This document shows, in pieces, positions 1-13,638 of a stretch of 13,638 bases of DNA. The translations under genes were made by a program, and so were the position numbers. The first letter of the stretch is position 1. Every line of letters begins with the position of its first letter. Origin of the DNA: a virus; the IMG/VR virus record IMGVR_UViG_3300045988_080637, positions 1 to 13,638 of that record. One strand, given 5' to 3'. The notes below the pieces were generated by a model that saw only the letters and a list, made by a program, of their open reading frames with translations, made no database searches and was not told the DNA's origin.

Positions 1-59
1 AGCCCCTGAAAGTGCTATTATATACTTGTAGAGAGGAAGGAAAACCTCACAAACCAGAA
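1..59. repeat. Left inverted terminal repeat (59 bp, perfect)
   Basis: nt 1-59 (AGCCCCTGAAAGTGCTATTATATACTTGTAGAGAGGAAGGAAAACCTCACAAACCAGAA) are the exact reverse complement of nt 13580-13638. Identity breaks at nt 60 versus 13579. Verified base by base. Confidence 0.95.
13..21 (+). promoter_or_regulatory. Putative extended -10 promoter inside the left ITR, reading inward
   Basis: TGcTATTAT (TGn plus TATtAT, 5/6). No room for a -35 box because the genome end is 12 nt upstream. It is the only promoter-like element upstream of the first left-arm ORF. Confidence 0.3.
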
Positions 60-107
60 AAGGAATTAGCTGACCTAACGGCTTGACGGGGAGAAGGGTA
101 GTTGCAC

Positions 108-338
108 ATGAATAAATCAATTATCAATCGCGAAGGTTGGCACACCACACACAACGGCTTTCGCTACTACGTTGAGGGCGGCAGAATCATTTACGGAATC
201 GCAAGCCTTTATGATGGTAGGGAGGTAAAGGTTTTTCCGTTCAGGGTTCAGAGCGACCGCGGCATAATTATTGGCTACGAACGAGTTGAACCGCTTGCCC
301 GTTATTACAATTTAACCCGTTACGTTTGGAGACAATAA
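108..338 (+). CDS. Hypothetical early protein (76 aa from ATG 108; TTG 102 is an alternative start)
   Basis: Open frame with purine-rich SD GGGGAGAAGGG (88-98). First gene inside the left ITR. No motif recognised. Confidence 0.6.
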   Translation: MNKSIINREGWHTTHNGFRYYVEGGRIIYGIASLYDGREVKVFPFRVQSDRGIIIGYERVEPLARYYNLTRYVWRQ

Positions 339-354
339 CCGGAGGTGAAATGAA

Positions 355-411
355 ATGTTGCTAACGGCAATCATGCTTGTAATTCTTGTAACATGGGGGT
401 TGCAACAATGA
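355..411 (+). CDS. Candidate 18-aa hydrophobic micro-ORF (MLLTAIMLVILVTWGLQQ), absent from the ORF track
   Basis: GGAGGTG (341-347) lies 7 nt upstream of ATG 355. The TGA stop (409-411) overlaps ATG 408 of the next gene as ATGA. The peptide is almost entirely hydrophobic. Confidence 0.3.
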   Translation: MLLTAIMLVILVTWGLQQ

Positions 412-596
412 ACAAAAGAAAACGCCGATATAAAGTCATATCGTTATCCATGTATCCAGAAGATTTGAAGCGACTAAAAGAAATATGCGACATTAGCAGA
501 ATGGACAATCTTTCAAAGACTGCCCGCCTCTGCATTAAAACCGTTTACAACGAATTGCTGAGAAGGGGGCTAATAAAGAATGGCACGATGGAATAA
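408..596 (+). CDS. Ribbon-helix-helix (CopG/Arc/MetJ-like) DNA-binding regulator, 62 aa (ATG 393 is an alternative start)
   Basis: Basic N-terminus KRKRR, a beta-strand-like YKVISLSM, then two helices (PEDLKRLKEICD; LSKTARLCIKTVYNELL), which is the RHH pattern. GGGGG (396-400) sits 7 nt before ATG 408. It occupies the position immediately upstream of the terminal-protein gene that p4 holds in phi29. Confidence 0.6.
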   Translation: MNKRKRRYKVISLSMYPEDLKRLKEICDISRMDNLSKTARLCIKTVYNELLRRGLIKNGTME

Positions 597-1281
597 ACGA
601 TTCGCACAAAGTACGGCGCTTGAAAATCGTCCTCTTCAAGCATCCGTCTATGTCGGCACAAAAATTCCGAAGGAAGGGCTTACACTCAAGGACGTCAGGA
701 AGGAAATGAAAGCGTTAATTGACCTAATGGATAAGCGCTTCAAGGCGGCAAAGAAGAAGGGCATTGAGTACGAAAGCATTAAACAGTATGAGCGCCATTA
801 TTGGGATAAGCCCTCCACCGTGCGGACGGTGGAGGAAGGCGTTCGGCAGATTCGCGCAATGTGGAAAGTTGTTAGCGGGACAAAAACACCAAAACAGTTA
901 TTTGTTACACAACAAAACCAGTGGAAACGCGAATATGAAACACTGTTACAACGTGGTTGGTTCACGGAAGATACCTTCACCTATGAAGATTTTTTGCAAT
1001 TCCGAAAATTTTTCGCGGTTTACGCTGACGCGAATAAAGAAGCACAATACTATTATATACTGCAAGATATTGTCGATGTGTCGCAGGAAGGCACGACCCG
1101 TGTTAAGCGGAAATTCGCCAAATCGGACTGGGAAGACTTGCTAAAGCGGTGGGATTACTGGGAGCGTCAAGCGGACAAAGCACGGGCGCGATATAAAGAA
1201 CGTCTTAAAGCCGGGGAATTTGTGAGCGGTTCGACCGTTCGGGCAATGCTTGAAAAAGCAAAAAGAGAAGGGAATATTTAG
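580..1281 (+). CDS. Candidate terminal (priming) protein, 233 aa
   Basis: Sits immediately upstream of the protein-primed PolB (stop 1281, pol ATG 1284), the same TP-then-pol order as phi29 genes 3 and 2. Size is close to phi29 TP (266 aa). Very K/R/E/W/Y-rich. No diagnostic motif exists, so the call rests on synteny. Confidence 0.5.
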   Translation: MARWNKRFAQSTALENRPLQASVYVGTKIPKEGLTLKDVRKEMKALIDLMDKRFKAAKKKGIEYESIKQYERHYWDKPSTVRTVEEGVRQIRAMWKVVSGTKTPKQLFVTQQNQWKREYETLLQRGWFTEDTFTYEDFLQFRKFFAVYADANKEAQYYYILQDIVDVSQEGTTRVKRKFAKSDWEDLLKRWDYWERQADKARARYKERLKAGEFVSGSTVRAMLEKAKREGNI

Positions 1282-1283
1282 GA

Positions 1284-3302
1284 ATGTTAAGCGTATATGA
1301 TGGAATCCAAAAAGTAACGGCGTTAGCGCCTGATAATCCACGGGCTAAAATCGTATACGCTAATGCGCTGATGGCATTTGACATTGAAACAACTCGGCTT
1401 GAAGATGATAATGCTGTAATGTACATTTGGCAATGCGGGCTATGTGTGGATGGAGAATACTATATCACATATGGTAGAACGTGGGAAGAATGGACTGCAT
1501 TACAGGAAGCAATAAATGCGCGACTTGGCGGAATTACAATAATTTGTCTTGTTCACAATCTTTCCTATGAGTTCCAATTTCTTGCCGGGCTTTACGAATT
1601 TTCCGATGTGAAATGCCTTAAAGCCCGGAAAATACTAGCCGCTACATGCGGGTGCATTGAGTATCGCTGTTCCTATATTTGGACAAATAAAACGCTTTCA
1701 AAATTTCTGAAGGAAATGAATGTCCAGCACGTGAAGAAATCGGGAGCGGAATTTGACTATTCTAAATCCCGTTATCCGTGGACAAAACTTTCAGAAGCGG
1801 AGATTGAATATTGCCAAAATGACGTTATCGGTTTACTTGAAGCTGCCGAAAAGAAGATTTCGCAAGATGGCGACACTCTCTATACAGTTCCGCGCACGTC
1901 TACGGGATACGTGCGCCGTGATGCAAAACAAGCGTTAAGCCAAACACCACTTGGAGCGCTTAAACCCACAGAAGAGATTTACAGAAAACTTCGCAAGGCG
2001 TTCAGAGGTGGAAACACGCACGCGAACCGGTATTTCGTCGGCAAGGTTTTGACGGGCGTGCAATCGGTCGACCGTTCATCAAGCTATTCTGACGTTATGC
2101 TGAATAATAAGTTTCCAATGAAACCATTCAAGAAATGCCCAGATGGAATAGCAACTATTAGGAGGGCTTTTTCATCCGGGCTTGCAATTCTTTGTACGAT
2201 GAGCATAACAGGCGCCACCTTGCGCAATCCGTTGTGGGGGTGTCCTTATATACCTGTTAGCAAATGCCAAATGCTTATAAATCCTATGGAAGATAACGGA
2301 CGAGTTCTTGAAGCGGATGCGCTGACGATTGAAGTAACAGAAGTAGATATACAGATAATTCTTGAAGAATATGATGGCGAATTTGATTTTACAGATATAT
2401 ATACGGCGGAGAAGGACTATTTGCCAAAACCATTTACGGATTGTATAAAACGATACTACACAAACAAAACTTCGCTTAAAGGAATCGCCGGAGGTGAATA
2501 TGAATACATGAAAAGTAAGAATTTGTTAAATAGCTTATACGGCATGACAGCCACTGACCCGGGGAAAGATGATGTTATTTTTGACGGTGTAGAATACATT
2601 CAGCAGGAAACGGACGTAATTAAAAATATCAAAAAATCATTCATGCCATATCAATGGGGCGTATGGGTTACAGCGTACGCAAGGCTTGAGTTGGAAGGAA
2701 TGATAAAGATTGCGGGGAATAATTTCGTTTATGCCGATACGGATAGCTGTAAATATATAAATTCAGAATCAATTAGTTATGAAGACTATAATAATAAACG
2801 CAAATCAGCATCCCTTGCGCATGGGGCATGTGCCGTAGACCCAAACGGAATAATGCATTATATGGGTGTTGCAGAAACAGAGGGGGAATATTACCAGTTT
2901 TTAACATGGGGGGCGAAAAAATATGCATCACAGGATGAAAAGGGACATATAGACATAACTATTGCGGGTGTGCGCAAAAATTCCAGCAAAAACGCTGCTG
3001 GTGATATAGTGGAATGGGGAGGTGGTGACGAACTGGAAGAAGCAGGTGGACTCGTAAAATTCGCGCCCGGGTTTGTTTTCCGAAAGGCAGGCGGGCTTGA
3101 AAGCGTTTACAATGACCATGTATGCAAGACAATTAGCGTTGATGGACACGAGTTACCAATAACCCGAAATGTATGCTTGCGTCCTTCAACATATGCGGTG
3201 GGAATTAGTTACAAATACGCGGGCTTACTCGAAGCGTTGCAGAACACTTATATAAGTGTTGACGCCGACCGTAATTTATGCTATAATCTTATTAGGCGAT
3301 AA
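1284..3302 (+). CDS. Protein-primed family-B DNA polymerase (phi29 gp2-like), 672 aa
   Basis: Motifs seen: Exo I AFDIETT; Exo II VHNLSYEFQF; Exo III YCQNDV; motif A VDRSSSYSDVM; motif B KSKNLLNSLYGMTA; motif C YADTDS; KxY GAKKYA. Confidence 0.97.
   Translation: MLSVYDGIQKVTALAPDNPRAKIVYANALMAFDIETTRLEDDNAVMYIWQCGLCVDGEYYITYGRTWEEWTALQEAINARLGGITIICLVHNLSYEFQFLAGLYEFSDVKCLKARKILAATCGCIEYRCSYIWTNKTLSKFLKEMNVQHVKKSGAEFDYSKSRYPWTKLSEAEIEYCQNDVIGLLEAAEKKISQDGDTLYTVPRTSTGYVRRDAKQALSQTPLGALKPTEEIYRKLRKAFRGGNTHANRYFVGKVLTGVQSVDRSSSYSDVMLNNKFPMKPFKKCPDGIATIRRAFSSGLAILCTMSITGATLRNPLWGCPYIPVSKCQMLINPMEDNGRVLEADALTIEVTEVDIQIILEEYDGEFDFTDIYTAEKDYLPKPFTDCIKRYYTNKTSLKGIAGGEYEYMKSKNLLNSLYGMTATDPGKDDVIFDGVEYIQQETDVIKNIKKSFMPYQWGVWVTAYARLELEGMIKIAGNNFVYADTDSCKYINSESISYEDYNNKRKSASLAHGACAVDPNGIMHYMGVAETEGEYYQFLTWGAKKYASQDEKGHIDITIAGVRKNSSKNAAGDIVEWGGGDELEEAGGLVKFAPGFVFRKAGGLESVYNDHVCKTISVDGHELPITRNVCLRPSTYAVGISYKYAGLLEALQNTYISVDADRNLCYNLIRR
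3245..3258. promoter_or_regulatory. 14-bp perfect palindrome CACTTATATAAGTG abutting the -35 box of P3259 (possible operator or activator site)
   Basis: CACTTAT/ATAAGTG is self-complementary and ends 1 nt before TTGACG (3259). About one such palindrome is expected by chance in 13.6 kb, so only the position is suggestive. Confidence 0.25.
3259..3287 (+). promoter_or_regulatory. Near-consensus sigma-A/sigma-70 type promoter inside the 3' end of polB
   Basis: TTGACG (3259-3264), 17-nt spacer ending TGc (3279-3281), then TATAAT (3282-3287): a -35, extended -10 and perfect -10. Confidence 0.7.
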
Positions 3303-3333
3303 CCGCCGAACAAATATTTAGGAGGGCATAATC

Positions 3334-3684
3334 ATGAGTAACACGAAGACTAATCAGAGCATTTCCCCGGCGGAACTGTACAAGCTGACGCTTTCCCGCG
3401 AAGGGCATACGATGTCAGAGTTGATGACGAAAACCGTACGTGTCGATGCATGGGCGGTGTCTGAAACAGTTGATAGTAACGGTGAGTTTAAGCCGCGTTG
3501 CGGGATTATCGTAGACGGCGTGCCATATATCACGAATGGTAGAGCGTTCAGCGAAAGGCTTCTTGCCATTGTTGATTATCTGGGCACGGCGGGTATGGAC
3601 GATGTGGGGTTCAAGATGCAAATTACACAGATTCGGAGCAAAAATAACCGCAACTACACGTCTTGCGAATTGATTTTCGATTGA
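3334..3684 (+). CDS. Hypothetical 116-aa protein; candidate abundant DNA-binding/SSB-like replication accessory protein
   Basis: AGGAGGG lies 7 nt before ATG 3334. Own strong promoter (3259) and own terminator (3695) imply high expression. It sits next to the replication genes. Function is inferred from context only. Confidence 0.7.
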   Translation: MSNTKTNQSISPAELYKLTLSREGHTMSELMTKTVRVDAWAVSETVDSNGEFKPRCGIIVDGVPYITNGRAFSERLLAIVDYLGTAGMDDVGFKMQITQIRSKNNRNYTSCELIFD

Positions 3685-3694
3685 CGCTGTCAGA

Positions 3695-3725
3695 GGCAGG
3701 GCGAATAACCCTGCCTTTTATTTTT
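3695..3725 (+). terminator. Rho-independent terminator
   Basis: GGCAGGG (3695-3701), loop CGAATAA, CCCTGCC (3709-3715), followed by TTTTATTTTT (3716-3725). Confidence 0.85.
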
Positions 3726-3735
3726 AGGAGGGCGT

Positions 3736-4755: not shown

Positions 4756-4758
4756 GTC

Positions 4759-4787
4759 TTGACAAATTGTAAAAATTATGATACATT
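4759..4787 (+). promoter_or_regulatory. Near-consensus sigma-A/sigma-70 type promoter directly after the ATPase stop
   Basis: TTGACA (4759-4764), 17-nt spacer ending TGa (4779-4781), then TACATT (4782-4787). Its upstream flank TTAAATAAGTC is nearly identical to that of P3259. Confidence 0.65.
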
Positions 4788-4793
4788 AGTTGT

Positions 4794-4876
4794 GGCAATA
4801 GGGAGGCTCGAACGACAACCCCGGAAGGGTGAGCATGGCATAGTCGTATGCCGCGAACCCTATTGCTATTTTATTT
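4794..4876 (+). ncRNA. Candidate ~80-nt structured RNA (three-way junction) ending in a U-tract; function unknown (pRNA-like RNA or terminated late-operon leader)
   Basis: The predicted TSS of P4759 falls at the foot of helix P1, 4795-4803 GCAATAGGG : 4858-4866 CCCTATTGC (9 WC bp, extendable by G.U and A-U pairs). P2 is 4807-4810:4830-4833 with bulge AACGACAAC and a CCC/GGG stem capped by GGAA (GNRA). P3 is 4837-4842:4847-4852 capped by GUCG. U-tract TTTTATTT lies at 4869-4876. There is no SD or credible start codon before 4887. Confidence 0.5.
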
Positions 4877-4902
4877 CCGGGAATACGGGAGGTGCTGATA
4901 TT

Positions 4903-5097
4903 GTGGATGTTACTGCAATCACGCAACTTGTAACTACGGTTGGATTTCCCATTGCTTGTACATTTGTCTTGTTTTCCTATCTTAACAAGGAGCGGGAACA
5001 GCACGCGGCTGAAACAAAAGAACTAAAAGATGCGCTGAACAATAACACGTTGGTTATCCAAAAATTGATTGATAAAATGGATGGTGATGCAAATTGA
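4903..5097 (+). CDS. Putative holin: small single-TM membrane protein (YvrJ-like GFPI motif), 64 aa, GTG start
   Basis: GGGAGGTG (4887-4894) lies 8 nt before GTG 4903. It has one hydrophobic helix (AITQLVTTVGFPIACTFVLFSYL) and a charged coiled C-terminus. Its stop overlaps the endolysin start (TTGA). Confidence 0.55.
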   Translation: MDVTAITQLVTTVGFPIACTFVLFSYLNKEREQHAAETKELKDALNNNTLVIQKLIDKMDGDAN

Positions 5098-5582
5098 CTG
5101 CGGCAGAATGGGCGGAAAAAATCAGCGCAGACCGTAATACTCTAATCGGCATCCCATATGCAACACTCGATTGTCAAGCATTTGTCGAATTTTGCCTAAA
5201 AAAATACGCAGGAATTTCCAGAAACTGGCGCGGCTCAAATGACATGTGGCGCAACGCTGTGCATGATAAGTTGGCAGATTTTGGAAACATCGAAGATGGC
5301 GAATGGGTATTTACCATCAAAAATGATGGCAAAGAACCTAAGCGTTACACCGATGGTGTAAACGCTGCACACGTCGGCATCTACATCGGCAATGGGGAGG
5401 TTATGCATTCTACCACAGGGGGAGTACAAATGGATAAAATTACTAATACACGCTGGACACATCGCGCGAAAGCAAATTGCCTTGATTATGCTAAGGATGT
5501 AACGACAACTGAAAATAGTTTCAATGCCCTATATAACGACCTTGTAGCACTTGTAAATAAATATGGAGGTAACAAACAATGA
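5094..5582 (+). CDS. NlpC/P60 (C40) family cell-wall peptidase, endolysin, 162 aa, TTG start
   Basis: Catalytic-Cys context IPYATLDCQAFVEF and His context AAHVGIYIGNGEVMHS are typical of NlpC/P60. Follows the holin candidate with a 4-nt overlap. Confidence 0.85.
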   Translation: MTAAEWAEKISADRNTLIGIPYATLDCQAFVEFCLKKYAGISRNWRGSNDMWRNAVHDKLADFGNIEDGEWVFTIKNDGKEPKRYTDGVNAAHVGIYIGNGEVMHSTTGGVQMDKITNTRWTHRAKANCLDYAKDVTTTENSFNALYNDLVALVNKYGGNKQ

Positions 5583-5911
5583 ATGTATCTGACATTTTGA
5601 CGCTGGCAAAAGCTGGATTTACGGCAGAGCAAATCGGGAAGCTGATGACCGTAGATGCACAGGCACCGGTGCCGGCACAGGCACAGGCGCCGGCACAGGC
5701 ACAGGCACCGGCACAGGCACAGGCACAGGCGCCGGCACCGGCACCGGCACAGGCACCGGATAATACACAGGCGCAGTTTGACAAGGTTTTCCAGCAGATT
5801 GCGAACCTTACGGGAATTGTGCAGAGGGGAAACATCGCAAACGCGCATCAGCCGGATTCACAGCCGCTGACGGCGGAGGATGTTCTTTCGGAAATCATCC
5901 GCCCGAACTAA
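5579..5911 (+). CDS. Putative scaffolding protein with (AQ/AP)n linker, 110 aa
   Basis: GGAGGT lies 8 nt before ATG 5579. A small helical/low-complexity protein immediately upstream of the major capsid gene, as gp7 is in phi29. Call is by synteny. Confidence 0.5.
   Translation: MNVSDILTLAKAGFTAEQIGKLMTVDAQAPVPAQAQAPAQAQAPAQAQAQAPAPAPAQAPDNTQAQFDKVFQQIANLTGIVQRGNIANAHQPDSQPLTAEDVLSEIIRPN
5657..5758 (+). repeat. Hexanucleotide tandem repeat (GCA-CAG / GCA-CCG)n, 102 nt, in-frame
   Basis: 17 consecutive 6-nt units of type GCACAG/GCACCG (variants GCGCCG, GTGCCG) encoding AQAPVPAQAQAPAQAQAPAQAQAQAPAPAPAQAP. Confidence 0.9.
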
Positions 5912-5926
5912 TGGAGGTGTTAAAAT

Positions 5927-7102
5927 ATGGCTAATACGCTTAGTATTGATAAAATTAGTACCCTGCTTAAAGCAGTTCTCAAGGATGCAACCGGGCAGGA
6001 TACAGCCGCGCTTGACACTAAGCAGTTGTTGACGCTCGGACAGAAGGCGCTGAAAACAGGTGCTGACCCTGTAATGAATGCAATTTCACAGATGCTATCG
6101 CGAACAATTTTTTCCAGCCGCCCATACAAAGCGAAGTTTGAGGGTATGCGGATTCCCGGCGACCAGTGGGGGAACTGGGTGAGGAAAATTAAGACGATTG
6201 ATGACCCGGACGACCTGACCGACAACCCTTACTGTGATTTGACCGACGGGCAGAGCGTCGACCAGTACACGATTCACAAGCCTAAGGTTGCACAGTTTAA
6301 CTTCTACGGACAGCAAAGCTACGAATATGAAAAAACGATTTTTGAAACGCAGTTAAACACGGCGTTTAATTCGGCAGAAGATTTCGGTGCATTTATTTCG
6401 ATGATTCTTACAAACATGAATAACAAAATCGAGAAGACGCACGAAGAAACCGCGCGCGCGACCGTTGCGGGTTTTGCCGCCGGCAAGATTGCGCAGAATG
6501 CCGATGTTATTCATCTGCTGACGGAGTACAACACCGCGACTGGACTGGAACTGACTGCCACGACCGTAATGCAACCGGCAAACTATAAGGTGTTTACCCA
6601 GTGGGCGTTTTCGCGCCTTGCTAACTTGTCCGATATGCTGACGGAGTATTCCAGTCTTTACCAGACCAATAGCGCAGATGGCGTATTTCTCCAGCACAGC
6701 CCGAAATCCGCACAGCGCGTGTATCTTAACTCTATGTTTATGCATCAAACCAACATGATGGCGCTTGCGGATACGTACCACGATAATTTCTTGCGTATGG
6801 CGGGTGATGTTGAATATGTCAATTTCTGGCAGATTATGACTGACCCCCAGAAAATCAACGTTGTAAAGCCGCAGTACCTTGCGGCTGACGGTACTATCGC
6901 CACTGCAACGAAAGACGTAAATCAGGGCAATGTTCTCGGAATTATTTGTGACCGTGACGCATTCGGGTATAGTCCAATTCTCACGCGGCAGAGGGTGACG
7001 CCTCCTAACGCGAAGGGCGAATATTACAATATTTTCTGGAAGTACAACGAGCGGCACGCCATCGACTTTACTGAAAAGGGTATTGTTATTCTGATGGATT
7101 AA
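5927..7102 (+). CDS. Major capsid protein, phi29 gp8-like (HK97 fold inferred), 391 aa
   Basis: GGAGGTG lies 7 nt before ATG. The block QLNTAFNSAEDFGAFISMILTNMNNKIE aligns by eye with phi29 gp8 [28 protein letters not shown]. Position after the scaffold and the following strong terminator-like helix fit an abundant late protein. Confidence 0.8.
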   Translation: MANTLSIDKISTLLKAVLKDATGQDTAALDTKQLLTLGQKALKTGADPVMNAISQMLSRTIFSSRPYKAKFEGMRIPGDQWGNWVRKIKTIDDPDDLTDNPYCDLTDGQSVDQYTIHKPKVAQFNFYGQQSYEYEKTIFETQLNTAFNSAEDFGAFISMILTNMNNKIEKTHEETARATVAGFAAGKIAQNADVIHLLTEYNTATGLELTATTVMQPANYKVFTQWAFSRLANLSDMLTEYSSLYQTNSADGVFLQHSPKSAQRVYLNSMFMHQTNMMALADTYHDNFLRMAGDVEYVNFWQIMTDPQKINVVKPQYLAADGTIATATKDVNQGNVLGIICDRDAFGYSPILTRQRVTPPNAKGEYYNIFWKYNERHAIDFTEKGIVILMD

Positions 7103-7108
7103 CTTAAT

Positions 7109-7189
7109 AGTAATAGCCCTGTATTTGCACAAAACAGGCCCTATAAGGCGCCCAAGTTAATACCATAGCAATACAGGGCTATTGCTTTT
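7109..7189 (+). terminator. Terminator-like 17-bp helix enclosing a 44-nt loop, followed by TTTT
   Basis: AGTAATAGCCCTGTATT (7109-7125) pairs with AATACAGGGCTATTGCT (7170-7186): 16 WC pairs plus 1 G.U. T-run at 7186-7189. Located 7 nt after the MCP stop. Confidence 0.6.
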
Positions 7190-7258
7190 GAGGCGATTCT
7201 GCGCGATTTTCCAAATGTGTTGGTAAATAACTTTACCAGAAAATACAGGAGGTGCAAC

Positions 7259-8002
7259 ATGGCAGGAGATAGACAGAGGTTGCCCGGTAGCAACATAGTC
7301 CCTGCTGTGGACAGCACAGCAACACGCTATCCCCATTGGTACAAGCCATTTCGGTTGCCACAGGAGTGGTATTATAGTATATACGATGACCCATATTTTG
7401 ACTATCAAGACCACGAGACAGCGAGCGAAACAAACGGCATACTTATTGCAACTGGGCTGTATAAAAACGGTTGGAAAATCCCCCAAATATCCGCAATTCT
7501 TGGGAACATGTGCCGTGAATCTACGCTTAACCCTGCATTGTGGCAGGGCGGTCATGCGCCAAGCCCCGAACCAAATAATTACAAACAGAACACAGAAAAG
7601 AAATACGGTTTTGGGCTTGTACAATGGACAGGAGCGGATAAATATATAGATTGGGCACTTGAAATATTTGGAACAAATGGGGCATATGCTGGGCTTGATT
7701 GTTGGTATAATGGTAGTATCCAGATAGCGCGCATTATGTACGAGGTAGAACACAATTATCAGTGGGAAGGCGGCACAATATACCCTGATTTCCAAGATTT
7801 TTACTTTTCCGATAGCACAGATGTCGAGCAGTTGACAAAAAGTTTTTGTCTCTGCTATGAGCGCCCTGCAATCACCGACTGGGAAGCAACAAGCAAATAT
7901 CGCATTCAGTGGGCTAATTATTGGTACAATAAATTACAAAAAATAAATCTGAATAGCTTGCCCATTTGGTTTATTTGCAAAGCCGCTAATAAATGGAGGT
8001 GA
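7259..8002 (+). CDS. Virion-associated peptidoglycan hydrolase (phage tail lysozyme domain), 247 aa
   Basis: AGGAGGTG precedes ATG 7259 (the track start 7217 has no SD). Motifs ILGNMCRESTLNPALWQ and YGFGLVQWT match the phage tail-lysozyme (Phage_lysozyme2-type) signature GNxxxES...NP...GxGLxQWT. Heads the tail-gene block, analogous in role to phi29 gp13. Confidence 0.75.
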   Translation: MAGDRQRLPGSNIVPAVDSTATRYPHWYKPFRLPQEWYYSIYDDPYFDYQDHETASETNGILIATGLYKNGWKIPQISAILGNMCRESTLNPALWQGGHAPSPEPNNYKQNTEKKYGFGLVQWTGADKYIDWALEIFGTNGAYAGLDCWYNGSIQIARIMYEVEHNYQWEGGTIYPDFQDFYFSDSTDVEQLTKSFCLCYERPAITDWEATSKYRIQWANYWYNKLQKINLNSLPIWFICKAANKWR

Positions 8003-8006
8003 AAGA

Positions 8007-9536
8007 ATGCAAATAAGATTGTATGCGTTCCGAAAGCGCATTAATTCCACGAAACGCCCAACTACAAAAAATGAACAGGGGCAGCTATCTTTTCTGACAG
8101 AATGCACGCTCAAAGATTTAACAAGCGTTCTTGCACCGCAAGTTGCGCTAATTTTTCCGGAGCATCAACTTTCCCCGGCAGCTTACAATTACGCATACAT
8201 TCCAGATTTCCATCGTTATTATTTTGTCACCGACATTATGTTCGACCGCAACCGCGTGATTTATACACTTTCCTGCGATGTTCTTGCGACTTACTGGGAT
8301 TCTCTCAAAGAATCTACACAGTATATTTTGCGTTCTGCAAGCGCTGGCGATTTATCAATAGTTGATAGCCTTTACCCTGTGACTTCTAAAATTACAAGCG
8401 GGGGGGCTGATGTTACAGGATGGGGGTTACCAACTCTTGCATCTGGCTATTATGTTCTGGGTATCGTAAACAACGCAACAAATTCAGTAGGTGGTATCGC
8501 CTATTATGTGTTGTCTAACGCACAGTTCGCTTCATTGCGGCATGCCCTTTTGACAGATTTTTCTTACATGGGAATAGCGGACAGTGAAATTTCGGCGGAA
8601 TTGCAACGCGCGATTATAAATCCTTTTCAATATATAGTTTCGTGCCGATGGTTCCCCGAAAAACCGCCGACGTCGGGCGCTGTTTCATCCATAACAATTT
8701 GTGGATGGGAATTTACAGGCGGAACAGCATCATTGCTTGCTGCTGATGGCGTTATCACGAAGGGAATAACTGTAAATAATATTGGCGTTCATCCTCAAAT
8801 TGGGCGTGGAAGATGGCTTGCATACGCGCCATATTCTACCTACTACCTATATTATCCGCCGTTTGGTGTAATACAATTAGACCCAACAAAACTACAAAAC
8901 ACATCTATTGGAATCGGCATTAGGGTTGACTGTGTATCGGGAATTGGGAGTATAACTATATCATCCGGCGAAAATCTCTTGTATTACGCCGAATGTAAAA
9001 TTGGTGTAGATATACAGCTTGCGCAAACAAGTTGGATAGGCGGCGCAATCTCTGACGTTACAAACGTTATCGGTTCAGCGGCAGCTGGCGCGAATGCTGG
9101 CGCGCTCGGCACTGGAGGAAGCGGAGCGCTTGCGGTATTAGGCGCTGGAGCAGGTGCTTTAGTTGGGATGACGCAAACTAACACTTTCAAGGGAGCGCTT
9201 GCCGGTATTGGTTCAGGTGAAACAACGTTTGCGGGAATCGGCACGGCGGCACATGCCGCTAACGGCGTTTTAAGTGTGCAGGGAAACAACGGAAATTTGT
9301 CAACCTATATTGTACAACCGCACATCTTTTGGAGGTTTGCCCATGTGGTAAATTCTGACAATGAAGATTTGGGAACACCATGTTGTAAGAAGCTAAAACT
9401 TTCAACGCTTACGGGGTTTACCACAGTTCAGCACCCCGATGTTGACGTGGTTCTTGCTTCGCAGCCGGAAATATCTTTGCTGATGCAATATTTATCATCG
9501 GGATTTTTCATTGAAGAAGGTGAATCTAATGGCTAA
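8007..9536 (+). CDS. Tail knob / distal tube protein, phi29 gp9-like, 509 aa
   Basis: N-terminal block YAYIPDFHRYYFVTDIMFDRNRVIYTLSCDVLATYW resembles phi29 gp9 [30 protein letters not shown]. A long Gly/Ala-rich hydrophobic segment resembles the gp9 membrane-active loop. C-terminal GFTTVQ...EISLLMQYLSSGF resembles the gp9 C-terminus. Confidence 0.8.
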   Translation: MQIRLYAFRKRINSTKRPTTKNEQGQLSFLTECTLKDLTSVLAPQVALIFPEHQLSPAAYNYAYIPDFHRYYFVTDIMFDRNRVIYTLSCDVLATYWDSLKESTQYILRSASAGDLSIVDSLYPVTSKITSGGADVTGWGLPTLASGYYVLGIVNNATNSVGGIAYYVLSNAQFASLRHALLTDFSYMGIADSEISAELQRAIINPFQYIVSCRWFPEKPPTSGAVSSITICGWEFTGGTASLLAADGVITKGITVNNIGVHPQIGRGRWLAYAPYSTYYLYYPPFGVIQLDPTKLQNTSIGIGIRVDCVSGIGSITISSGENLLYYAECKIGVDIQLAQTSWIGGAISDVTNVIGSAAAGANAGALGTGGSGALAVLGAGAGALVGMTQTNTFKGALAGIGSGETTFAGIGTAAHAANGVLSVQGNNGNLSTYIVQPHIFWRFAHVVNSDNEDLGTPCCKKLKLSTLTGFTTVQHPDVDVVLASQPEISLLMQYLSSGFFIEEGESNG

Positions 9537-10455
9537 TAATCCACCCTTTGATTACAACCACATAAATGCCTATGAATCGAGCATTTCCCCATCTACTTGC
9601 CACACAAAAAACACAGCGCTTTTCCAATTTTATCAACGCTATTTATTTCAGAAACTGACAAGCCAATTCAAATGGAGCTTACCCGAAGGTTGGAGCGATA
9701 CGTATTTTCTCGGCTGTTTATATGCATGGGGAAGCGTTGCGATTTTTAATAGCAAGCGTTACGGTGTAATTCCGCAGGCGGGTGCATTATATGGATACAA
9801 TGTTTTTTATCAGCCAACAAGCGTGATGATTGCAAATCCCCTTTTGCCACCGATGCGCTTGCAAATTGATAAGGATTGCGTTCTTTTCCGATTGCAACGC
9901 GATTACCACGGAGCGCTGGACATTGTTAATTATTACGCGGACTTGCTTGCAACTTCTGTAGAATCGCTTGCCATGAACATAATGAACTCTAAACTTTCAT
10001 ATGTGTTCGCCTGCGGTTCAAAAAATGCCGCACAAACTGGAAAAGAATTGATGGATAGGGTAACATCTGGTGAATTAGCTGTATGGGTGGATAAAGCCCT
10101 TTTTAACGATGATGGTTCTCCCTCGTGGGCGCCGTTCGCGCAAAACGTAGGGCAAAACTATATCGCGGACAGAATACTTTCCAACATGAGGCAAATTGAA
10201 GCAGAATTTGATACCCGCGTAGGGATTCCGACTTGTAACACCGACAAAAAAGAACGGTTGATTAGCGCTGAAGCGGAACGGAACGACGTTGAAACAGACG
10301 CAATCGTTGCGCAATGGTTTGATACCATTCAGGAGTGCATCCGCAACGTACAGAATGCGTTCGGTGTGGCAATCACTTGTGAGCGACGTTATCCGATTGA
10401 GCATAAAACAAATGGAGGTGATAAGATTGAGCGTGATGCTGGCTACAATGTATAA
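9529..10455 (+). CDS. Portal / head-tail connector (upper collar), phi29 gp10-like, 308 aa
   Basis: ATG 9529 follows GAAGGTG. Size matches phi29 gp10 (309 aa). Blocks FKWSLPEGW...GSVAIF and NTDKKERLISAEAERNDVETD align with gp10 FEWENLPPT...GYVGFY and [21 protein letters not shown]. Confidence 0.85.
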   Translation: MANNPPFDYNHINAYESSISPSTCHTKNTALFQFYQRYLFQKLTSQFKWSLPEGWSDTYFLGCLYAWGSVAIFNSKRYGVIPQAGALYGYNVFYQPTSVMIANPLLPPMRLQIDKDCVLFRLQRDYHGALDIVNYYADLLATSVESLAMNIMNSKLSYVFACGSKNAAQTGKELMDRVTSGELAVWVDKALFNDDGSPSWAPFAQNVGQNYIADRILSNMRQIEAEFDTRVGIPTCNTDKKERLISAEAERNDVETDAIVAQWFDTIQECIRNVQNAFGVAITCERRYPIEHKTNGGDKIERDAGYNV

Positions 10456-11020
10456 TTTTGACCCTTCAATCTTTGACGGCGTGGAATTTCCTTCTAATAT
10501 ATCGGTGCAAGATTTCGTCGATTCACTCCTGATGCAGTGCGGAGAAATGCCTGTTCTTTATTCGTCCCCGCCTTTGTTTAAATCGCTAATTAGGGTATGG
10601 TCACAAATTTCGCAATATACATGGGAGCGCCTTGCCAAAACACTAACGGCGGAATATAATCCAATAGAAAATTATGATAGAATGGAAGAATGGGAGGACA
10701 GCGCCACAAACACTTCGCGCTATACAAATTCTGTAAATAACACTTCCAGTGGCTCAACAAAAGAACAGATTTACGGTTACAATGATTTGCAAAGCCCGGC
10801 GGACAATAGCGCAAGGACCAGCGCAAGCACAAGCGCGGATACAAGCGATAGTGCCGGGACAGGCACAAGCGCAGGAACTCGAAAAGGGCGGGCGCACGGT
10901 AACATCGGTGTAACCACTACGCAAGAAATGCTGGAAAATGAACGGCGTGTTGCAATGTTCAACTTCTATGATGCAATTATTCGGGATTTTCAGAAGCGGT
11001 TTTTAATTTGGGTGTATTAA
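10427..11020 (+). CDS. Hypothetical structural protein; candidate lower collar / head-tail adaptor, 197 aa (TTG 10427; GTG 10433 and ATG 10436 are alternatives)
   Basis: GGAGGTG (10414-10420) lies 6 nt before the in-frame TTG. Sits directly after the portal gene, as gp11 does in phi29. Has a Ser/Thr/Ala-rich low-complexity centre. Function is by synteny only. Confidence 0.5.
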   Translation: MSVMLATMYNFDPSIFDGVEFPSNISVQDFVDSLLMQCGEMPVLYSSPPLFKSLIRVWSQISQYTWERLAKTLTAEYNPIENYDRMEEWEDSATNTSRYTNSVNNTSSGSTKEQIYGYNDLQSPADNSARTSASTSADTSDSAGTGTSAGTRKGRAHGNIGVTTTQEMLENERRVAMFNFYDAIIRDFQKRFLIWVY

Positions 11021-11037
11021 CAGGAGGTGTAAAATAT

Positions 11038-12492
11038 ATGGGTATTTGGGAACAATTCCCGTTTACGAATTTCCACGAACAGAATCTTGATTGGGCTTAT
11101 AATTCAATCAAAGAACTTGATGGAAGAGTTGACACGCTGGAAAAGAGCGGCAATGTAAGCAAAGAATACGTGGACGAACAGGATGCGGCGCTTGACGAAA
11201 AAATCAGCGGCGAACGTTCCGCGCGAACAACCGCAGACCAACAACTCCAAAATCAGATTACAGCGCACACGACAAGTATCAGCGGTCTTAATGGAAGAAT
11301 GGTTGAGGCGGAAAAGAACATAGGCGTGAAGCAGAATGTGCCTAATTTCAGAAGCATTTGGAGCACAATTGGTGATTACGAGGCTACACAGGCAATCGGC
11401 AGTAAGTTGCTGCAAGTTCAGACGGAGGGCAAGGAAAATCATCGTTCTATTGCTGGAACTGGTGGCGTGTATGATATTACTAAAGGCACAATTCAGGCGC
11501 GTCTAAATACAATCGAGGACGCGCTGAAACCCGGTTCGCTCGTAAAACAGAACAGCACAGCGGTTATCTCCATTCCGGCAAATACGGCAAGAGGTACGAG
11601 GTTTAAGCCCACGGCGGCTATTCCAGAGTTTGTCTTTGCCATTGCGGAACGTGAAACGGCAGTAACAACGGATGTTGGAAACTCTGATAATATTATTCTG
11701 CTGTGTTCGCCTCTGATTACCGAAAGTGGTGCTAAATACAATTCTTACGAAATCGAAGCTGATTGCAAGGGCGAAAACACAGCTGATTATATGCGCGTTC
11801 GTGTTAGAACTTTTGTATTCGTGGAAGGAAATGACAGCGGGGAACAGTACGCAACTACATCATATGTAGATGAAAAAACTGAACAGCTTGCAACAGAATT
11901 GGGTAACGTAGAGGCGGAAGCGCAGGATGCGTACACCAAGGCGGAGACGGCGGACAACAACGCCGCAATTGCCAAGTCAACCGCAACAACGGCGGCTTAT
12001 ACGGCTTCAACTGCACTGGAAAAAATCGGAACGAAACCAGAAGAATCAAAATATAACACCATCTGGGAAACGCTGGGAACATGGTCGGAAAATGTCCCCA
12101 TGGCGATCAGAATTAATCCTGCCTATAATTGGAGCTGGAACAATCGGTCTGCTATCAATGGTACTTCGGACTATCCCACAGACAAGGCTTCTATCAATTC
12201 GCGCTTGTCAGAGTTGGAAACAGCTATTGCTAAATTCCAGAATATGCCAAAAATCGCAAGGGGACACGTGGCAGCGTACCAAGACCAAGACGTTATTATT
12301 GATTATCAGTCAGCAGGATTTACCGAAATCCCAACGGTTGTCGCGACTTTTGCTAACACGGGTGCAACCGCCGACAGTGTAACGCGCAGTCAGTTGATTT
12401 TTGCAAAAACTACAAGCTCAGCAAAAATCAGGCTTTCCGGTACTTCCAGTCACGAGGCGTTTGGCGTAGATTGGATTGCGGTTGGTGTGTAA
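11038..12492 (+). CDS. Tail fibre / appendage receptor-binding protein with coiled coils and two duplicated lectin-like modules, 484 aa
   Basis: AGGAGGTG lies 8 nt before ATG 11038. The N-terminal FPFTNFHEQNLDWAYNSIKEL motif is common in Firmicutes phage fibres. Heptad-like segments are present. An internal module repeat is seen (see findings). The C-terminal FTEIPTVVATF...GVDWIAVG resembles an H-type lectin domain. Confidence 0.65.
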   Translation: MGIWEQFPFTNFHEQNLDWAYNSIKELDGRVDTLEKSGNVSKEYVDEQDAALDEKISGERSARTTADQQLQNQITAHTTSISGLNGRMVEAEKNIGVKQNVPNFRSIWSTIGDYEATQAIGSKLLQVQTEGKENHRSIAGTGGVYDITKGTIQARLNTIEDALKPGSLVKQNSTAVISIPANTARGTRFKPTAAIPEFVFAIAERETAVTTDVGNSDNIILLCSPLITESGAKYNSYEIEADCKGENTADYMRVRVRTFVFVEGNDSGEQYATTSYVDEKTEQLATELGNVEAEAQDAYTKAETADNNAAIAKSTATTAAYTASTALEKIGTKPEESKYNTIWETLGTWSENVPMAIRINPAYNWSWNNRSAINGTSDYPTDKASINSRLSELETAIAKFQNMPKIARGHVAAYQDQDVIIDYQSAGFTEIPTVVATFANTGATADSVTRSQLIFAKTTSSAKIRLSGTSSHEAFGVDWIAVGV

Positions 12493-12493
12493 C

Positions 12494-12524
12494 AATAAAG
12501 GGAGGGCATTGCCCTCCCTTTATT
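12494..12524. terminator. Bidirectional rho-independent terminator between the convergent late (+) and right-arm (-) operons
   Basis: AATAAAGGGAGGGC (12494-12507), loop ATT, GCCCTCCCTTTATT (12511-12524): a 14-bp perfect stem with A/T runs on both flanks, serving both strands. Confidence 0.85.
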
Positions 12525-12768
12525 CACCCCATGCAGTTAGATGCGCGCCCCCACGAAAACGGGTTGCAACCCAGCGATAGCCCCCGGCACGGCGGCGACG
12601 ATAGAGCTTTGCGCACTGCGTACCCTTAGAAATGCTGGTAGCAATTTCCATTGACCTCATTGCAAATGTGAGCGAATAAAATTCAAACCGTTTGATACTG
12701 CTTTCATCATTCCTTTCGATTTCTCTTCCATCGGCGTCGTACCGAATAAGCACATAATTAGCTTTCAT
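12520..12768 (-). CDS. Hypothetical early protein, 82 aa, Arg-rich basic C-terminus
   Basis: GGGAGG lies 7 nt before ATG 12768. Start overlaps the upstream ORF. C-terminus KLYRRRRAGGYRWVATRFRGG is strongly basic, hinting at nucleic-acid binding, which is speculative. Confidence 0.6.
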   Translation of the reverse strand: MKANYVLIRYDADGREIERNDESSIKRFEFYSLTFAMRSMEIATSISKGTQCAKLYRRRRAGGYRWVATRFRGGAHLTAWGE

Positions 12769-12976
12769 CAGGCTTCCTCCCTTTATATAATCTCTTTATT
12801 TCACCATCATTTATAGAAATAAGCTGTACTTCTTTCGCTACATAACGTGGGGTGTCCCCATCATGCCTTACAAGGGCTTTACAAAGTTGTAAAGCATTCG
12901 GAATATCGCCCTCTCCGCTCATATCACTAACTGTAATCTCACCATCTTTCCATAAAATTATCGCTATAATGACCAT
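12758..12976 (-). CDS. Hypothetical early protein, 72 aa
   Basis: GAGGTG lies 7 nt before ATG 12976. Tightly packed in the right-arm operon. No motif recognised. Confidence 0.6.
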   Translation of the reverse strand: MVIIAIILWKDGEITVSDMSGEGDIPNALQLCKALVRHDGDTPRYVAKEVQLISINDGEIKRLYKGRKPDES

Positions 12977-12982
12977 GTATGT

Positions 12983-13180
12983 TCACCTCTCATAGATTCG
13001 GACTTGTTCAACTCCGCGGAGCGGCTCAGCGACTGAACGCGCCATGAACTCCGCACGAGTTATTCTATTTGCTATGTTAGTATCCTCCCATACTGTCCAA
13101 TAATAGTAAGAGTTCGTAAATGTGTAACCCTTGCGGTGCAAGTCGTCGATTTGGTCATGCGTTAGTCTTGCCTGTTTCAT
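12983..13180 (-). CDS. Hypothetical early protein, 65 aa (track version starts at 13252)
   Basis: Internal ATG 13180 is preceded by GGAAGGG at 8 nt. The longer form would overlap the upstream ORF by 98 nt and has no SD. Confidence 0.55.
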   Translation of the reverse strand: MKQARLTHDQIDDLHRKGYTFTNSYYYWTVWEDTNIANRITRAEFMARSVAEPLRGVEQVRIYER

Positions 13181-13370
13181 CGTGTAATCCCTTCCTGTGG
13201 GCTTCTTGCCGCTTTGATATAATTTCACGGGTGATAGCCCGTGCAATGGCAAGTAGGGCTTCGCGTTCGTCTGAGCTGAAACCCTTGTAACTTCGATTCG
13301 TCAAGTTGCAAATCTCGGTTAAGGTTTTAGCCCGAAGAAACTGAACCGCAAGAAAGCGAAAATCAGTCAT
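13155..13370 (-). CDS. Hypothetical early protein, 71 aa, weak HTH-like segment
   Basis: ATG 13370 overlaps the upstream ORF's stop codon (13363-13365). KTLTEICNLTNRSYKGFSSDEREALLAIARAI is loosely reminiscent of sigma region-4/HTH, with low confidence. Confidence 0.55.
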   Translation of the reverse strand: MTDFRFLAVQFLRAKTLTEICNLTNRSYKGFSSDEREALLAIARAITREIISKRQEAHRKGLHDETGKTNA

Positions 13371-13569
13371 TCAGCACACCCTCCATTCGTTCAGCCCTGA
13401 GTCGCTCAACAAACATGTCATAAAGCAGAACTTTTACTTCCGCCTGTGTTAGCTTGTCGGTCTTGTAATCATAAAGAACTGCACTAATGATGGCCTCAAT
13501 TTGAACAAGCGGAATGTGGCTATATGCCTTTTGCAACCGTTCACACCATACTTCCATTCTCTCCGACAT
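13363..13569 (-). CDS. Hypothetical early protein, 68 aa, first gene inside the right ITR
   Basis: GGGAG lies 5 nt before ATG 13569, immediately internal to the ITR boundary. Predicted helical. No motif recognised. Confidence 0.65.
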   Translation of the reverse strand: MSERMEVWCERLQKAYSHIPLVQIEAIISAVLYDYKTDKLTQAEVKVLLYDMFVERLRAERMEGVLND

Positions 13570-13579
13570 TTCTTCTCCC

Positions 13580-13638
13580 TTCTGGTTTGTGAGGTTTTCC
13601 TTCCTCTCTACAAGTATATAATAGCACTTTCAGGGGCT
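13580..13638. repeat. Right inverted terminal repeat (59 bp, perfect)
   Basis: Reverse complement of nt 1-59. ITRs together with a protein-primed PolB are the hallmark of terminal-protein-capped linear genomes. Confidence 0.95.
13618..13626 (-). promoter_or_regulatory. Putative extended -10 promoter inside the right ITR, reading inward
   Basis: Mirror copy of 13-21. Only 69 nt separate ATG 13569 from the genome end, so the right-arm operon promoter must lie in the ITR. Confidence 0.3.

Follow-up and report, generated by a model that had tools for sequence, protein, structure and literature searches.

Does a viral contig that begins and ends with the same perfect inverted repeat represent a complete phage genome, and what is encoded in the gap behind its packaging ATPase gene? 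Both questions are raised by IMG/VR record IMGVR_UViG_3300045988_080637, which was analyzed over its whole length of 13,638 bp (hereafter the window). A first-pass annotation had described it as the complete genome of a phi29-like, protein-primed podophage, bounded by a 59-bp inverted terminal repeat (ITR) and novel in its small size and rearranged gene order. We arrive at a different picture, to which we assign a probability of about 0.88: the window is a near-complete (~97%) assembly of a ~14.0-kb linear double-stranded DNA genome, which belongs to a phi29-like protein-primed podophage common in human faeces and works as proposed below. The assignment to the phi29-like phages thus stands. 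As a genome, it is an ordinary further member of an already catalogued clade with many representatives from the human gut. What is new is a 78-nt RNA with a three-way junction, encoded between the ATPase and lysis genes, which is strongly supported by covariation and absent from Rfam.

Terminal Repeats and Genome Ends

The repeat itself is present as described: positions 1-59 and 13580-13638 form a 100% complementary inverted repeat, and the match ends at base 60. As a boundary of the genome it fails, being a k-mer-sized stub of an ITR of ~200-260 bp. Sister assemblies, found by exact-protein look-ups with the first and last genes, run further outward on both sides. ENA contig k79_6894 (13,989 bp) aligns to positions 1-13638 of the window without gaps and with six mismatches (99.96% identity), and runs on for 155 bp past the left and 196 bp past the right window end. 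Contig k119_28040 (14,092 bp) and several IMG/VR contigs likewise extend beyond the window ends, and the 59-nt block sits 156-214 or 197-255 nt from the ends of the sister contigs. Close matches do show the window to be a fragment of a larger molecule, the finding on which the first-pass annotation had itself made its claim of completeness depend, though the larger molecule is only ~14.0 kb.

In the alignment of all available ends, the first base of the window falls inside an early promoter, behind the -35 and ahead of the -10 element, so that the -35 hexamer TTCACA, which precedes TATTAT by 17 nt, is not included. The flank outboard of window base 1 is written as ...CTTCACAA(C/T), and also as ...TCTTCACAA(C/T). 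As seen in that alignment, the 59-mer is the inner part of a longer ITR and carries the predicted -10 element and leader of an inward-reading promoter that is present at both ends.

Where the genome really ends can be read from the relatives. Independent contig ends stop at 5'-GGGTATTCC (both ends of L023, further L027, L029 and, with one extra base, k119_28040); L032 ends in the variant GGGTATTCTGG, and GGGTATTC terminates k119_28040, L023, L027, L029 and L032. In the case of L038, a more distant relative, an Illumina adapter is joined directly to GGG at both ends (positions 1-27 and the right end), and this fusion marks a physical terminus. The adapter-tagged ends of L038 and the GGGTATTC ends together give the physical termini of the clade, with a terminal GGG that is suited to sliding-back initiation.

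A survey of ITR length over all loci of at least 9 kb separates two kinds of contigs. Untruncated relatives have perfect ITRs of 199, 211, 225, 226, 237, 238, 245 and 258 bp. In contigs that begin at no fixed point within the ITR, the terminal repeat measures exactly 55 (two contigs), 59 (the window) or 119 bp (two contigs). We take these lengths to be the k-mer sizes of SPAdes (55) and MEGAHIT (59 and 119); names such as k79_ and k119_ presumably follow the MEGAHIT scheme k<kmax>_<id>. In a de Bruijn graph, an ITR longer than k collapses to one node, and the unique part is emitted with a k-base overlap on either side. The repeat thus owes its length, and probably its perfection too, to the assembly and not to the phage. 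The real genome is ~13.99-14.04 kb long, has ITRs of ~200-260 bp and ends in 5'-GGGTATTCC; ~155-200 bp are missing at each window end. Probably, the two ITR copies of the source population were identical and the de Bruijn assembler broke the contig at the inner ITR boundary, keeping one 59-nt k-mer per side. That k79_6894 was assembled to its ends could be because its two ends have diverged.

Could the window nevertheless be the whole genome of 13,638 bp with a true perfect 59-bp ITR? The repeat lies exactly at both window ends, and ITRs of only 6 bp (phi29) or 18 bp (astrithr) are known from the group. Yet an assembly that is identical over 13,579 nt continues beyond both ends, the window opens inside a promoter, its repeat has the size of an assembler k just as the 55- and 119-bp repeats of other truncated relatives do, and several independent contigs end at GGGTATTC, well outboard of the window ends, so that we consider a complete window very improbable. 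A piece of a much larger element, be it a prophage, a plasmid or a bigger phage, would fit the truncation, but is farther-fetched still. The 72 related IMG/VR loci all lie on contigs of at most 14.8 kb, the 120 listed of the 323 knob homologues found all lie on contigs of at most ~15 kb, several relatives have ITRs at both ends and one has adapter at both termini. Since all related contigs are short and neither integrase nor tRNA nor host genes were found in the window (library scans and a tRNA check), a free, linear, ITR-bounded phage genome is indicated.

Two points weigh against the assembly history preferred here. The k = 59 origin is indirect because the window's own reads and contig name are not to hand, and the left block of k79_6894 differs from that of the window at six positions (5, 6, 11, 25, 27 and 29, all in the outer half of the left 59-mer). 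Consequently, either the window strain has a homogenised ITR or the left 59-mer is chimeric. Such a chimera would have arisen by copying right-end sequence to the left across a 30-nt exact repeat (window 30-59), the join in question being that of AGCCCCTGAAAG to AAGGAATTAGCTGACC and the variant at issue AGCCCCTGAAAG...+AAGGAATTAGC. All six differences indeed fall within window 1-29, immediately outside the 30 nt that the two ends of k79_6894 have in common; perfect homogenised ITRs of 199-258 bp, on the other hand, are usual in the relatives and yield the same contig shape without any chimera, which makes a chimeric left end improbable.

Three further observations concern the terminal regions. 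Their ~100-130-nt middle exists in two unrelated versions, and what the ends have in common is confined to the first ~37 nt and the promoter block. Since k79_6894 (ends L006 and L009) has one version per end and L023 a single version on both sides, ITR segments may have been exchanged or converted from one end to the other. A TTGTCAnTTyCCCC-like motif lies 25-40 nt from the terminus in otherwise unrelated ITRs, as seen in the first 25-45 nt of ten contigs (L023, L030-L032, L038, L044, L073, L080, L086 and L095), and is a candidate origin element. Finally, the deposited genome of the cultured Amedibacillus phage AD70P2 (L003) has a perfect ITR of exactly 55 bp (1-55 and 12266-12320), followed by imperfect similarity; its ends may be truncated as those of the window are, 55 being, as we assume, the SPAdes k.

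A Three-Way-Junction RNA Behind the ATPase Gene

The 147 nt between the stop of the ATPase gene (4755) and the holin-like gene (4903) hold a promoter, a 78-nt element and a U-run (Table 1). Almost all relatives have an equivalent promoter. In the fold of the element, a 12-bp closing helix leads to a three-way junction with two arms: one has a 9-nt bulge on one side and a CCC-GGAA-GGG cap, the other is a 6-bp hairpin, the loop of which (GUCG) is complementary to CGAC in the bulge of the window RNA. Folded in isolation, the element reaches -32.9 kcal/mol (z = -3.6 versus shuffles).

A first covariance model was built from ten close strains, and a second one (R2) from its distant-relative hits. 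At E ≤ 0.01, hits were obtained in 38 genomes, each on the late-gene strand. The RNA model gave no hit in 187 kb of control phage DNA including phi29, Cp-1, asccphi28, HM2, CS229P2 and astrithr; model R2 found nothing in these six phages or in AD70P2, five of the genomes being searched with filters off. Across the 38-sequence alignment, 93% of the cells are paired and compensatory changes occur in 25 of the 26 pairs, counts that are biased since the alignment was fitted to the model structure. The covariation score amounts to 0.86 versus at most 0.17 for slid partners and was reached by none of 500 shuffles. RNAalifold independently predicts the same fold, and in the two long helices both partners of each pair vary.

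The complementarity of bulge and loop is kept as well. Thirteen complementary types were found that co-vary, with ACGAC/GUCGU in the window and, e.g., ACACC/GGUGU, GACCA/UGGUC, GGACA/UGUCC, GUAUCA/UGAUAC, GUGC/GCAC, AUGC/GCAU, GCUA/UAGC and AGGCA/UGCCU elsewhere. The mean complementary run is 3.8 nt when bulge and loop come from the same genome versus 2.2 nt in cross-pairings, and the observed mean was reached in none of 2000 permutations. The element is also the best conserved sequence locally (90-94% identity versus 65-91% for the flanking genes). The 78-nt RNA is real and subject to selection. No Rfam family matches it, the window as a whole showing only a terminator-like sub-threshold hit at 12482-12530, and a blastn search with the RNA region returned nothing from 50,697 phage records; the motif is new. 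A hammerhead or other ribozyme was considered and dismissed, given the absence of an Rfam hit and junction strands (2, 2 and 5 nt) without a catalytic core.

A Possible Packaging RNA or Leader of the Late Genes

By analogy with phi29, the 78-nt RNA may be a minimal prohead (packaging) RNA (pRNA), which would be made from its own promoter after the ATPase gene and form a ring at the portal vertex through intermolecular bulge-loop pairing. We propose this tentatively, as our first guess but at somewhat less than even odds. The two molecules correspond element by element. In both, the 5' and 3' ends form a closing (A) helix. The first arm consists of a C helix with a one-sided 9-nt CE loop in phi29 and of a C-like helix with a one-sided 9-nt bulge in the window, capped by a 4-bp E stem-loop and a 3-4-bp stem-loop, respectively. 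The second arm is a 6-bp D helix, the loop of which pairs with the CE bulge, and in the window a 6-bp hairpin, the loop of which pairs with the bulge. The folded element shows the features that characterize a pRNA structurally, with A, C/E and D helices meeting in a three-way junction, a CE bulge on one side only and a loop on the D helix; the Watson-Crick complementarity between CE bulge and D loop is found in the 13 co-varying pairs. Known pRNAs share ~12% of their sequence and keep structure and loop complementarity (PMC5066667).

The genomic setting points in the same direction. The window encodes homologues of gp16, gp10 and gp8, which use pRNA in phi29. The -10 element of the promoter ends 3-11 nt before the helix, which one sub-clade extends by GGG...CCC flanks to the point that its first base is the predicted transcription start; read in this way, the succession of promoter, helix and U-run would describe a discrete RNA of 80-90 nt. 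In AD70P2, too, the ATPase gene is followed by a promoter, a three-way-junction RNA and a U-run. The AD70P2 RNA is too diverged for detection by model R2, and its 9-nt bulge AUAUCCAAU is complementary to the loop GGGAUA of the second hairpin. Since the literature cites a pRNA for Cp-1 (PMC6266182), one more example outside Bacillus phages would add to a known kind rather than constitute a new one; reviews treat pRNA as unique to phi29 and its close relatives (PMC5066667, PMC11476376). A search of the terminal ~170 nt of the full ITR for a Cp-1/asccphi28-style pRNA, on both strands and for both end types, gave folds no better than shuffles (z -0.7 to +0.9), so that the full ITR offers no structured alternative.

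The window RNA could instead act in cis, as a 5' leader of the late/lysis operon with the bulge-loop contact made within one molecule, a possibility to which we also give a little under an even chance. Placed behind a constitutive promoter, such a leader could serve for attenuation or antitermination, much as lambda PR'-tR' or HK022 put do, or else stabilise the transcript or act in translation. Several observations favour it and weigh against a packaging RNA. The RNA always lies right after the strong promoter and 13-121 nt (usually ~20-35 nt) before the ribosome-binding site (RBS) of the downstream gene, which usually encodes a 62-85-aa holin-like protein and otherwise a lysin. In the rearranged genomes L002, L071, L073 and L041 the RNA stays with the late block and not with the ATPase gene. 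The U-run follows it in most genomes and is missing from some relatives (L037, L038, L071 and L041). Compared to phi29 pRNA, the closing helix is shorter (12-16 versus ~25 bp) and the junction linkers differ (2/2/5 versus 1/3/0 nt), and the pRNA family RF00044 gives no hit at E ≤ 1 over the whole window nor at E ≤ 10 on 4770-4900. The C-like helix has 5 bp versus 9 bp in phi29, and the gene lies after the ATPase gene at the head of the late genes, in contrast to the left genome end in phi29. RF00044 finds no pRNA in the relatives either, and model R2 misses the phi29 pRNA. Arms of 5 and 6 bp set bulge and loop at equal height and would allow an intramolecular contact. In phi29, gp10 has a basic N-terminal stretch implicated in pRNA binding; the N-terminus of the window portal is without such a stretch.

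A leader, in turn, does not readily account for a layout that equals the prohead-binding domain of pRNA in each of its elements. The predicted transcription start coincides with the first base of the closing helix and the U-run comes after its last base, so that the 5' and 3' ends of the RNA would pair as in pRNA. The junction is also without conserved nucleotides resembling a ligand pocket, and neither in L097 nor in AD70P2 does the gene behind the RNA open the structural operon. A role that is neither packaging RNA nor cis-acting leader appears unlikely.

Gene Content and Organization

The coding map of the window consists of plus-strand genes, a palindromic terminator and four to five small minus-strand genes at the right end (Table 1). 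PolB, ATPase, capsid, portal, lysozyme and endolysin were called by Pfam and PHROG library scans of the window proteins. These matches bear out the first-pass calls of PolB, the gp16-like ATPase and the gp8- and gp10-like proteins, and its reading of early genes running inward from both ends, of ATPase and lysis cassette ahead of the structural block, and of all but five genes on one strand (the five small genes at the right end) is likewise supported.

Table 1. Predicted features of the window in order of position.
Feature	Position	Strand	Evidence and remarks
Left inner-ITR block	1..59	+	Extended -10 element TGCTATTAT at 13-21 and shared leader of inward early promoter
First left-end early gene, 76 aa	108..338	+	Identical protein called on 6 contigs
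Basic 62-aa open reading frame (ORF)	408..596	+	Not called in ENA annotations; ribbon-helix-helix look by eye only
Putative terminal protein, 233 aa	580..1281	+	Position only; ends 3 nt before PolB
Protein-primed PolB, 672 aa	1284..3302	+	PF03175 E=5e-14, PHROG 1907 E=1e-50
Conserved 116-aa protein, last gene of left early operon	3334..3684	+	Equal-length ORF at the same place in L002
Intrinsic terminator closing left early operon	3692..3718	+	10-bp stem, then T-run
gp16-type DNA packaging ATPase, 339 aa	3736..4755	+	PF05894 E=3e-20, PHROG 2150 E=1e-41
Near-consensus sigma-70-type promoter	4759..4787	+	TTGACA-N17-TACATT with TG; ends 4 nt before the RNA
78-nt three-way-junction RNA	4792..4869	+	Covariance models, RNAalifold; followed by U-run 4870-4880
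Holin-like protein, 64 aa, one transmembrane segment	4903..5097	+	PHROG 4898 'holin' E=2e-4, weak; conserved first gene after the RNA
NlpC/P60 endopeptidase, putative endolysin	5094..5582	+	PF00877 E=3e-9
Scaffold-like protein, 110 aa, (AQ/AP)n tandem repeat	5579..5911	+	Directly upstream of capsid gene, as phi29 gp7
phi29-type major capsid protein	5927..7102	+	PF25622 (phi29 major capsid protein) E=4e-18
gp13-like tail lysozyme	7259..8002	+	PF18013 E=6e-25
Tail knob, gp9-like, 509 aa	8007..9536	+	Fold; disordered Gly/Ala-rich loop at residues 340-426
Portal / upper collar, gp10-like	9529..10455	+	PF05352 E=4e-17, PHROG 2038 E=3e-32
Lower collar, short gp11-like, 197 aa	10427..11020	+	BLASTP phi29 gp11 E=8e-5; AD70P2 counterpart E=2e-16
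Putative tail fibre or receptor-binding protein, 484 aa	11038..12492	+	gp12 slot; position only
Bidirectional terminator, late operon / right early operon	12494..12524		15-bp perfect palindrome; arrangement as in phi29
Right-end early operon, 4-5 small genes (82, 72, ~65, 71, 68 aa)	12520..13569	-	Read from right-ITR promoter
Right inner-ITR block	13580..13638	-	Identical to sister assemblies

Exo I-III, motifs A, B and C and KxY of PolB are all invariant in an alignment that includes phi29 gp2 and three relatives. Residues shared with phi29 include D33/E35, H91-N92, Y176/D180 and D263/S266/Y268, further K412...Y419-G420, Y483-D485-T486-D487 and K545/Y547, and insertions are present at the TPR1 and TPR2 positions. 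The 233-aa protein encoded in front of PolB is probably the terminal protein, as it occupies the same place as phi29 gp3, Cp-1 orf4 and asccphi28 gp06. Its AlphaFold2 (AF2) model is all alpha (predicted local distance difference test, pLDDT, 74). Weighing against this part of our model, Foldseek found no match for the AF2 model at E ≤ 0.001, and hhalign against the pre-PolB proteins of AD70P2, astrithr and phi29 (gp3) gave probabilities of at most 1%; phmmer against the PDB yielded nothing credible either. The call stays positional because none of the three methods returned a match.

The gp9-like identity of the 509-aa protein was resolved by structure prediction only. For both this protein and a 199-aa protein, phmmer found no match in the PDB. 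The AlphaFold model of the 509-aa protein (pLDDT 75) matches the tail knob gp9 of phi29 alone (Foldseek 5FB5, E=1.4e-11, probability 1.0), so that here the fold confirmed a first-pass call that sequence could not check. IMG/VR contig L025 encodes an ATPase 100% identical to that of the window and a knob (8164-9579) with no more than 35% identity; evidently, genomes that are nearly identical elsewhere swap their tail modules. The tail lysozyme corresponds to the N-terminal domain of gp13, with tblastn matches to the 'morphogenesis protein' (gp13) of Bacillus phi29-like phages. The first-pass annotation had further stated that head-fibre and large appendage genes are lacking. Indeed, no homologue of the head fibre gp8.5 was found in the window, but a 484-aa gene fills the gp12 slot; for this 484/494-aa tail protein no PHROG, Pfam, PDB or named-phage homologue was found.

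Library scans gave no family match for the scaffold-like protein. Its (AQ/AP)n repeat (window 5639-5788) has units of 6-18 nt, and the protein measures 110 aa here versus 94 aa in k119_28040. The gap after the capsid gene (7103-7258) contains a hairpin with a 23-bp stem (7103-7125 with 7170-7192). This stretch is replaced by a 16-nt gap in k119_28040 and is a dispensable insertion or a terminator; the hairpin (7103-7192) was dropped as an RNA gene, given its absence from that strain.

Variation is also found at the left end. A slot just past the left ITR promoter (window 60-107; L005 240-491; L001 148-333) holds an extra 83-aa gene in k119_28040 and Logan ERR1136657, another small ORF in MT839743, and no gene in the window or k79_6894. 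The 76-aa protein has no informative family match in the library scans. A hydrophobic 18-codon micro-ORF at 355-411, behind a strong RBS, precedes the ORF at 408-596, which could encode a small DNA-binding regulator without family support; the ribbon-helix-helix guess was given up, as Pfam did not back it.

Relationship to Known Phages

The phage belongs with the phi29-like protein-primed podophages, the Picovirinae in their old, broad sense. The set of proteins that marks phi29-like phages, a gp16-type ATPase, a phi29-type capsid protein, a gp10 connector and a gp9 knob, is encoded in the window (PF05894, PF25622, PF05352 and Foldseek 5FB5, respectively), and a linear genome with ITRs at its physical ends is found via the relatives (199-258-bp ITRs, GGG termini and adapter-tagged ends). 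No named phage was matched by megablast, the sole match being a 4-kb human-faecal contig. At the protein level, the nearest sequences are unannotated 12-15-kb faecal contigs, followed by Clostridium phage HM2, Amedibacillus phages AD70P2/AD70P3 (12.3 kb) and Astrithrvirus (11.2-11.9 kb). Identity to AD70P2 and HM2 amounts to 32-35% for PolB and 28% for the capsid protein. Gram-positive-type lysins and the hosts of the nearest isolates suggest a Bacillota host.

The same species-level cluster comprises k79_6894 (ERZ27260719) and the IMG/VR uncultivated virus genomes (UViGs) 3300045988_106820, _080360 and _077296, the latter three being 87-97% identical to the window with the same gene set. Unlike the window, these sequences reach or approach the true termini GGGTATTCC, and their ITRs measure 226-258 bp. 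Behind the left promoter, some carry one more small gene, and in some the tail module is swapped.

Neither small size nor gene order sets this phage apart, as had been supposed. Isolated phages are as small or smaller (AD70P2 12.3 kb, Astrithrvirus 11.6 kb), AD70P2 has the same gene order and Cp-1 the same strand plan, and gut genomes of 12-15 kb have been reviewed (PMC11476376). That 2024 review counts over 2000 phi29-like entries, including many human-gut genomes of 12-15 kb, and ranks these as the smallest tailed phages (PMC11476376). The cultured AD70P2 (OP172638, 12,320 bp, filed under Guelinviridae) shares with the window the order terminal-protein-like gene, PolB, small genes, ATPase, scaffold, capsid, knob, portal, lower collar and fibre. 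It differs in sequence (PolB 32% and capsid 28% identical), in GC content (27% versus 44%) and in having neither the right-end minus-strand operon nor a gp13-like gene between capsid and knob.

Cp-1 resembles the window in its long ITR (236 bp) with inward early promoters at both ends, in carrying terminal protein and PolB on the late-gene strand and in its small minus-strand operon at the right end, whereas it is larger (19.3 kb), has ATPase, holin and lysin after the tail genes and contains no RNA detectable by R2. In the case of phi29 (Salasvirus), PolB, gp16, gp8, gp9, gp10, gp11 and gp13 are homologous, the block from scaffold through capsid, knob, portal and collar to appendage is colinear, and the right early operon converges on a bidirectional terminator (promoter C2, terminator after gene 16). 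Unlike the window, phi29 has a 19.3-kb genome with a 6-bp ITR, a left early operon on the opposite strand, a gp8.5 head fibre, an 854-aa gp12, lysis genes and ATPase in last position, and a pRNA gene at the left end. The gene order, the RF00044 pRNA and the nucleotide relatedness that would place the window in Salasmaviridae/Salasvirus were not found. Astrithrvirus (Salmonella phage astrithr and relatives, 11.2-11.9 kb) also comprises protein-primed podophages, yet smaller ones, and astrithr has PolB, ATPase and then structural genes on one strand with small minus-strand genes at the right end. In contrast to the window, the hosts are Gram-negative, PolB and capsid are 37 and 23% identical, the portal gene lies ahead of the capsid gene, and neither gap nor RNA follows the ATPase gene; nucleotide similarity at genus level is absent, megablast giving no match.

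Module order varies within the clade, with an inverted structural block in L002 and a phi29-like order in L097. In L002 (MT835998, 14.0 kb, PolB 45% identical) the inversion is relative to PolB and ATPase, and its copy of the three-way-junction RNA lies with the late block near one genome end.

Proposed Working of the Genome

Based on characterised relatives, the genome may work as follows. The 233-aa product would serve as terminal protein and prime PolB replication at each end, where the terminal GGG would allow sliding-back, much like the homopolymer runs at the termini of phi29 and PRD1. Identical promoters in both ITR copies would read inward. From the left one, the small genes, the terminal protein, PolB and the 116-aa protein would be expressed up to the terminator at 3692-3718; from the right one, the four to five small minus-strand genes up to the bidirectional terminator at 12494-12524. 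The strong promoter after the ATPase gene would give rise to the 78-nt three-way-junction RNA, and read-through from the same promoter to the messages for holin, endolysin, scaffold, capsid, tail lysozyme, knob, portal, lower collar and fibre.

Implications

For ITR-bounded phages, de Bruijn assemblers emit a 'perfect ITR' of the size of the k-mer (55, 59 and 119 bp here). ITR lengths and ITR-based completeness calls can therefore be artefacts, and the 55-bp ITR deposited for AD70P2 deserves the same check.

With the RNA described here and a cultured relative of the same design, the question whether gp16-type motors outside Bacillus phages use a pRNA becomes directly testable. If the RNA is a pRNA, pRNA-dependent packaging would extend to a large clade of ~12-15-kb phi29-like phages, many from the human gut and possibly including AD70P2, and a natural pRNA would exist that is much smaller than any known. 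If it is a leader instead, these phages would possess a new compact regulatory RNA that controls lysis and late genes.

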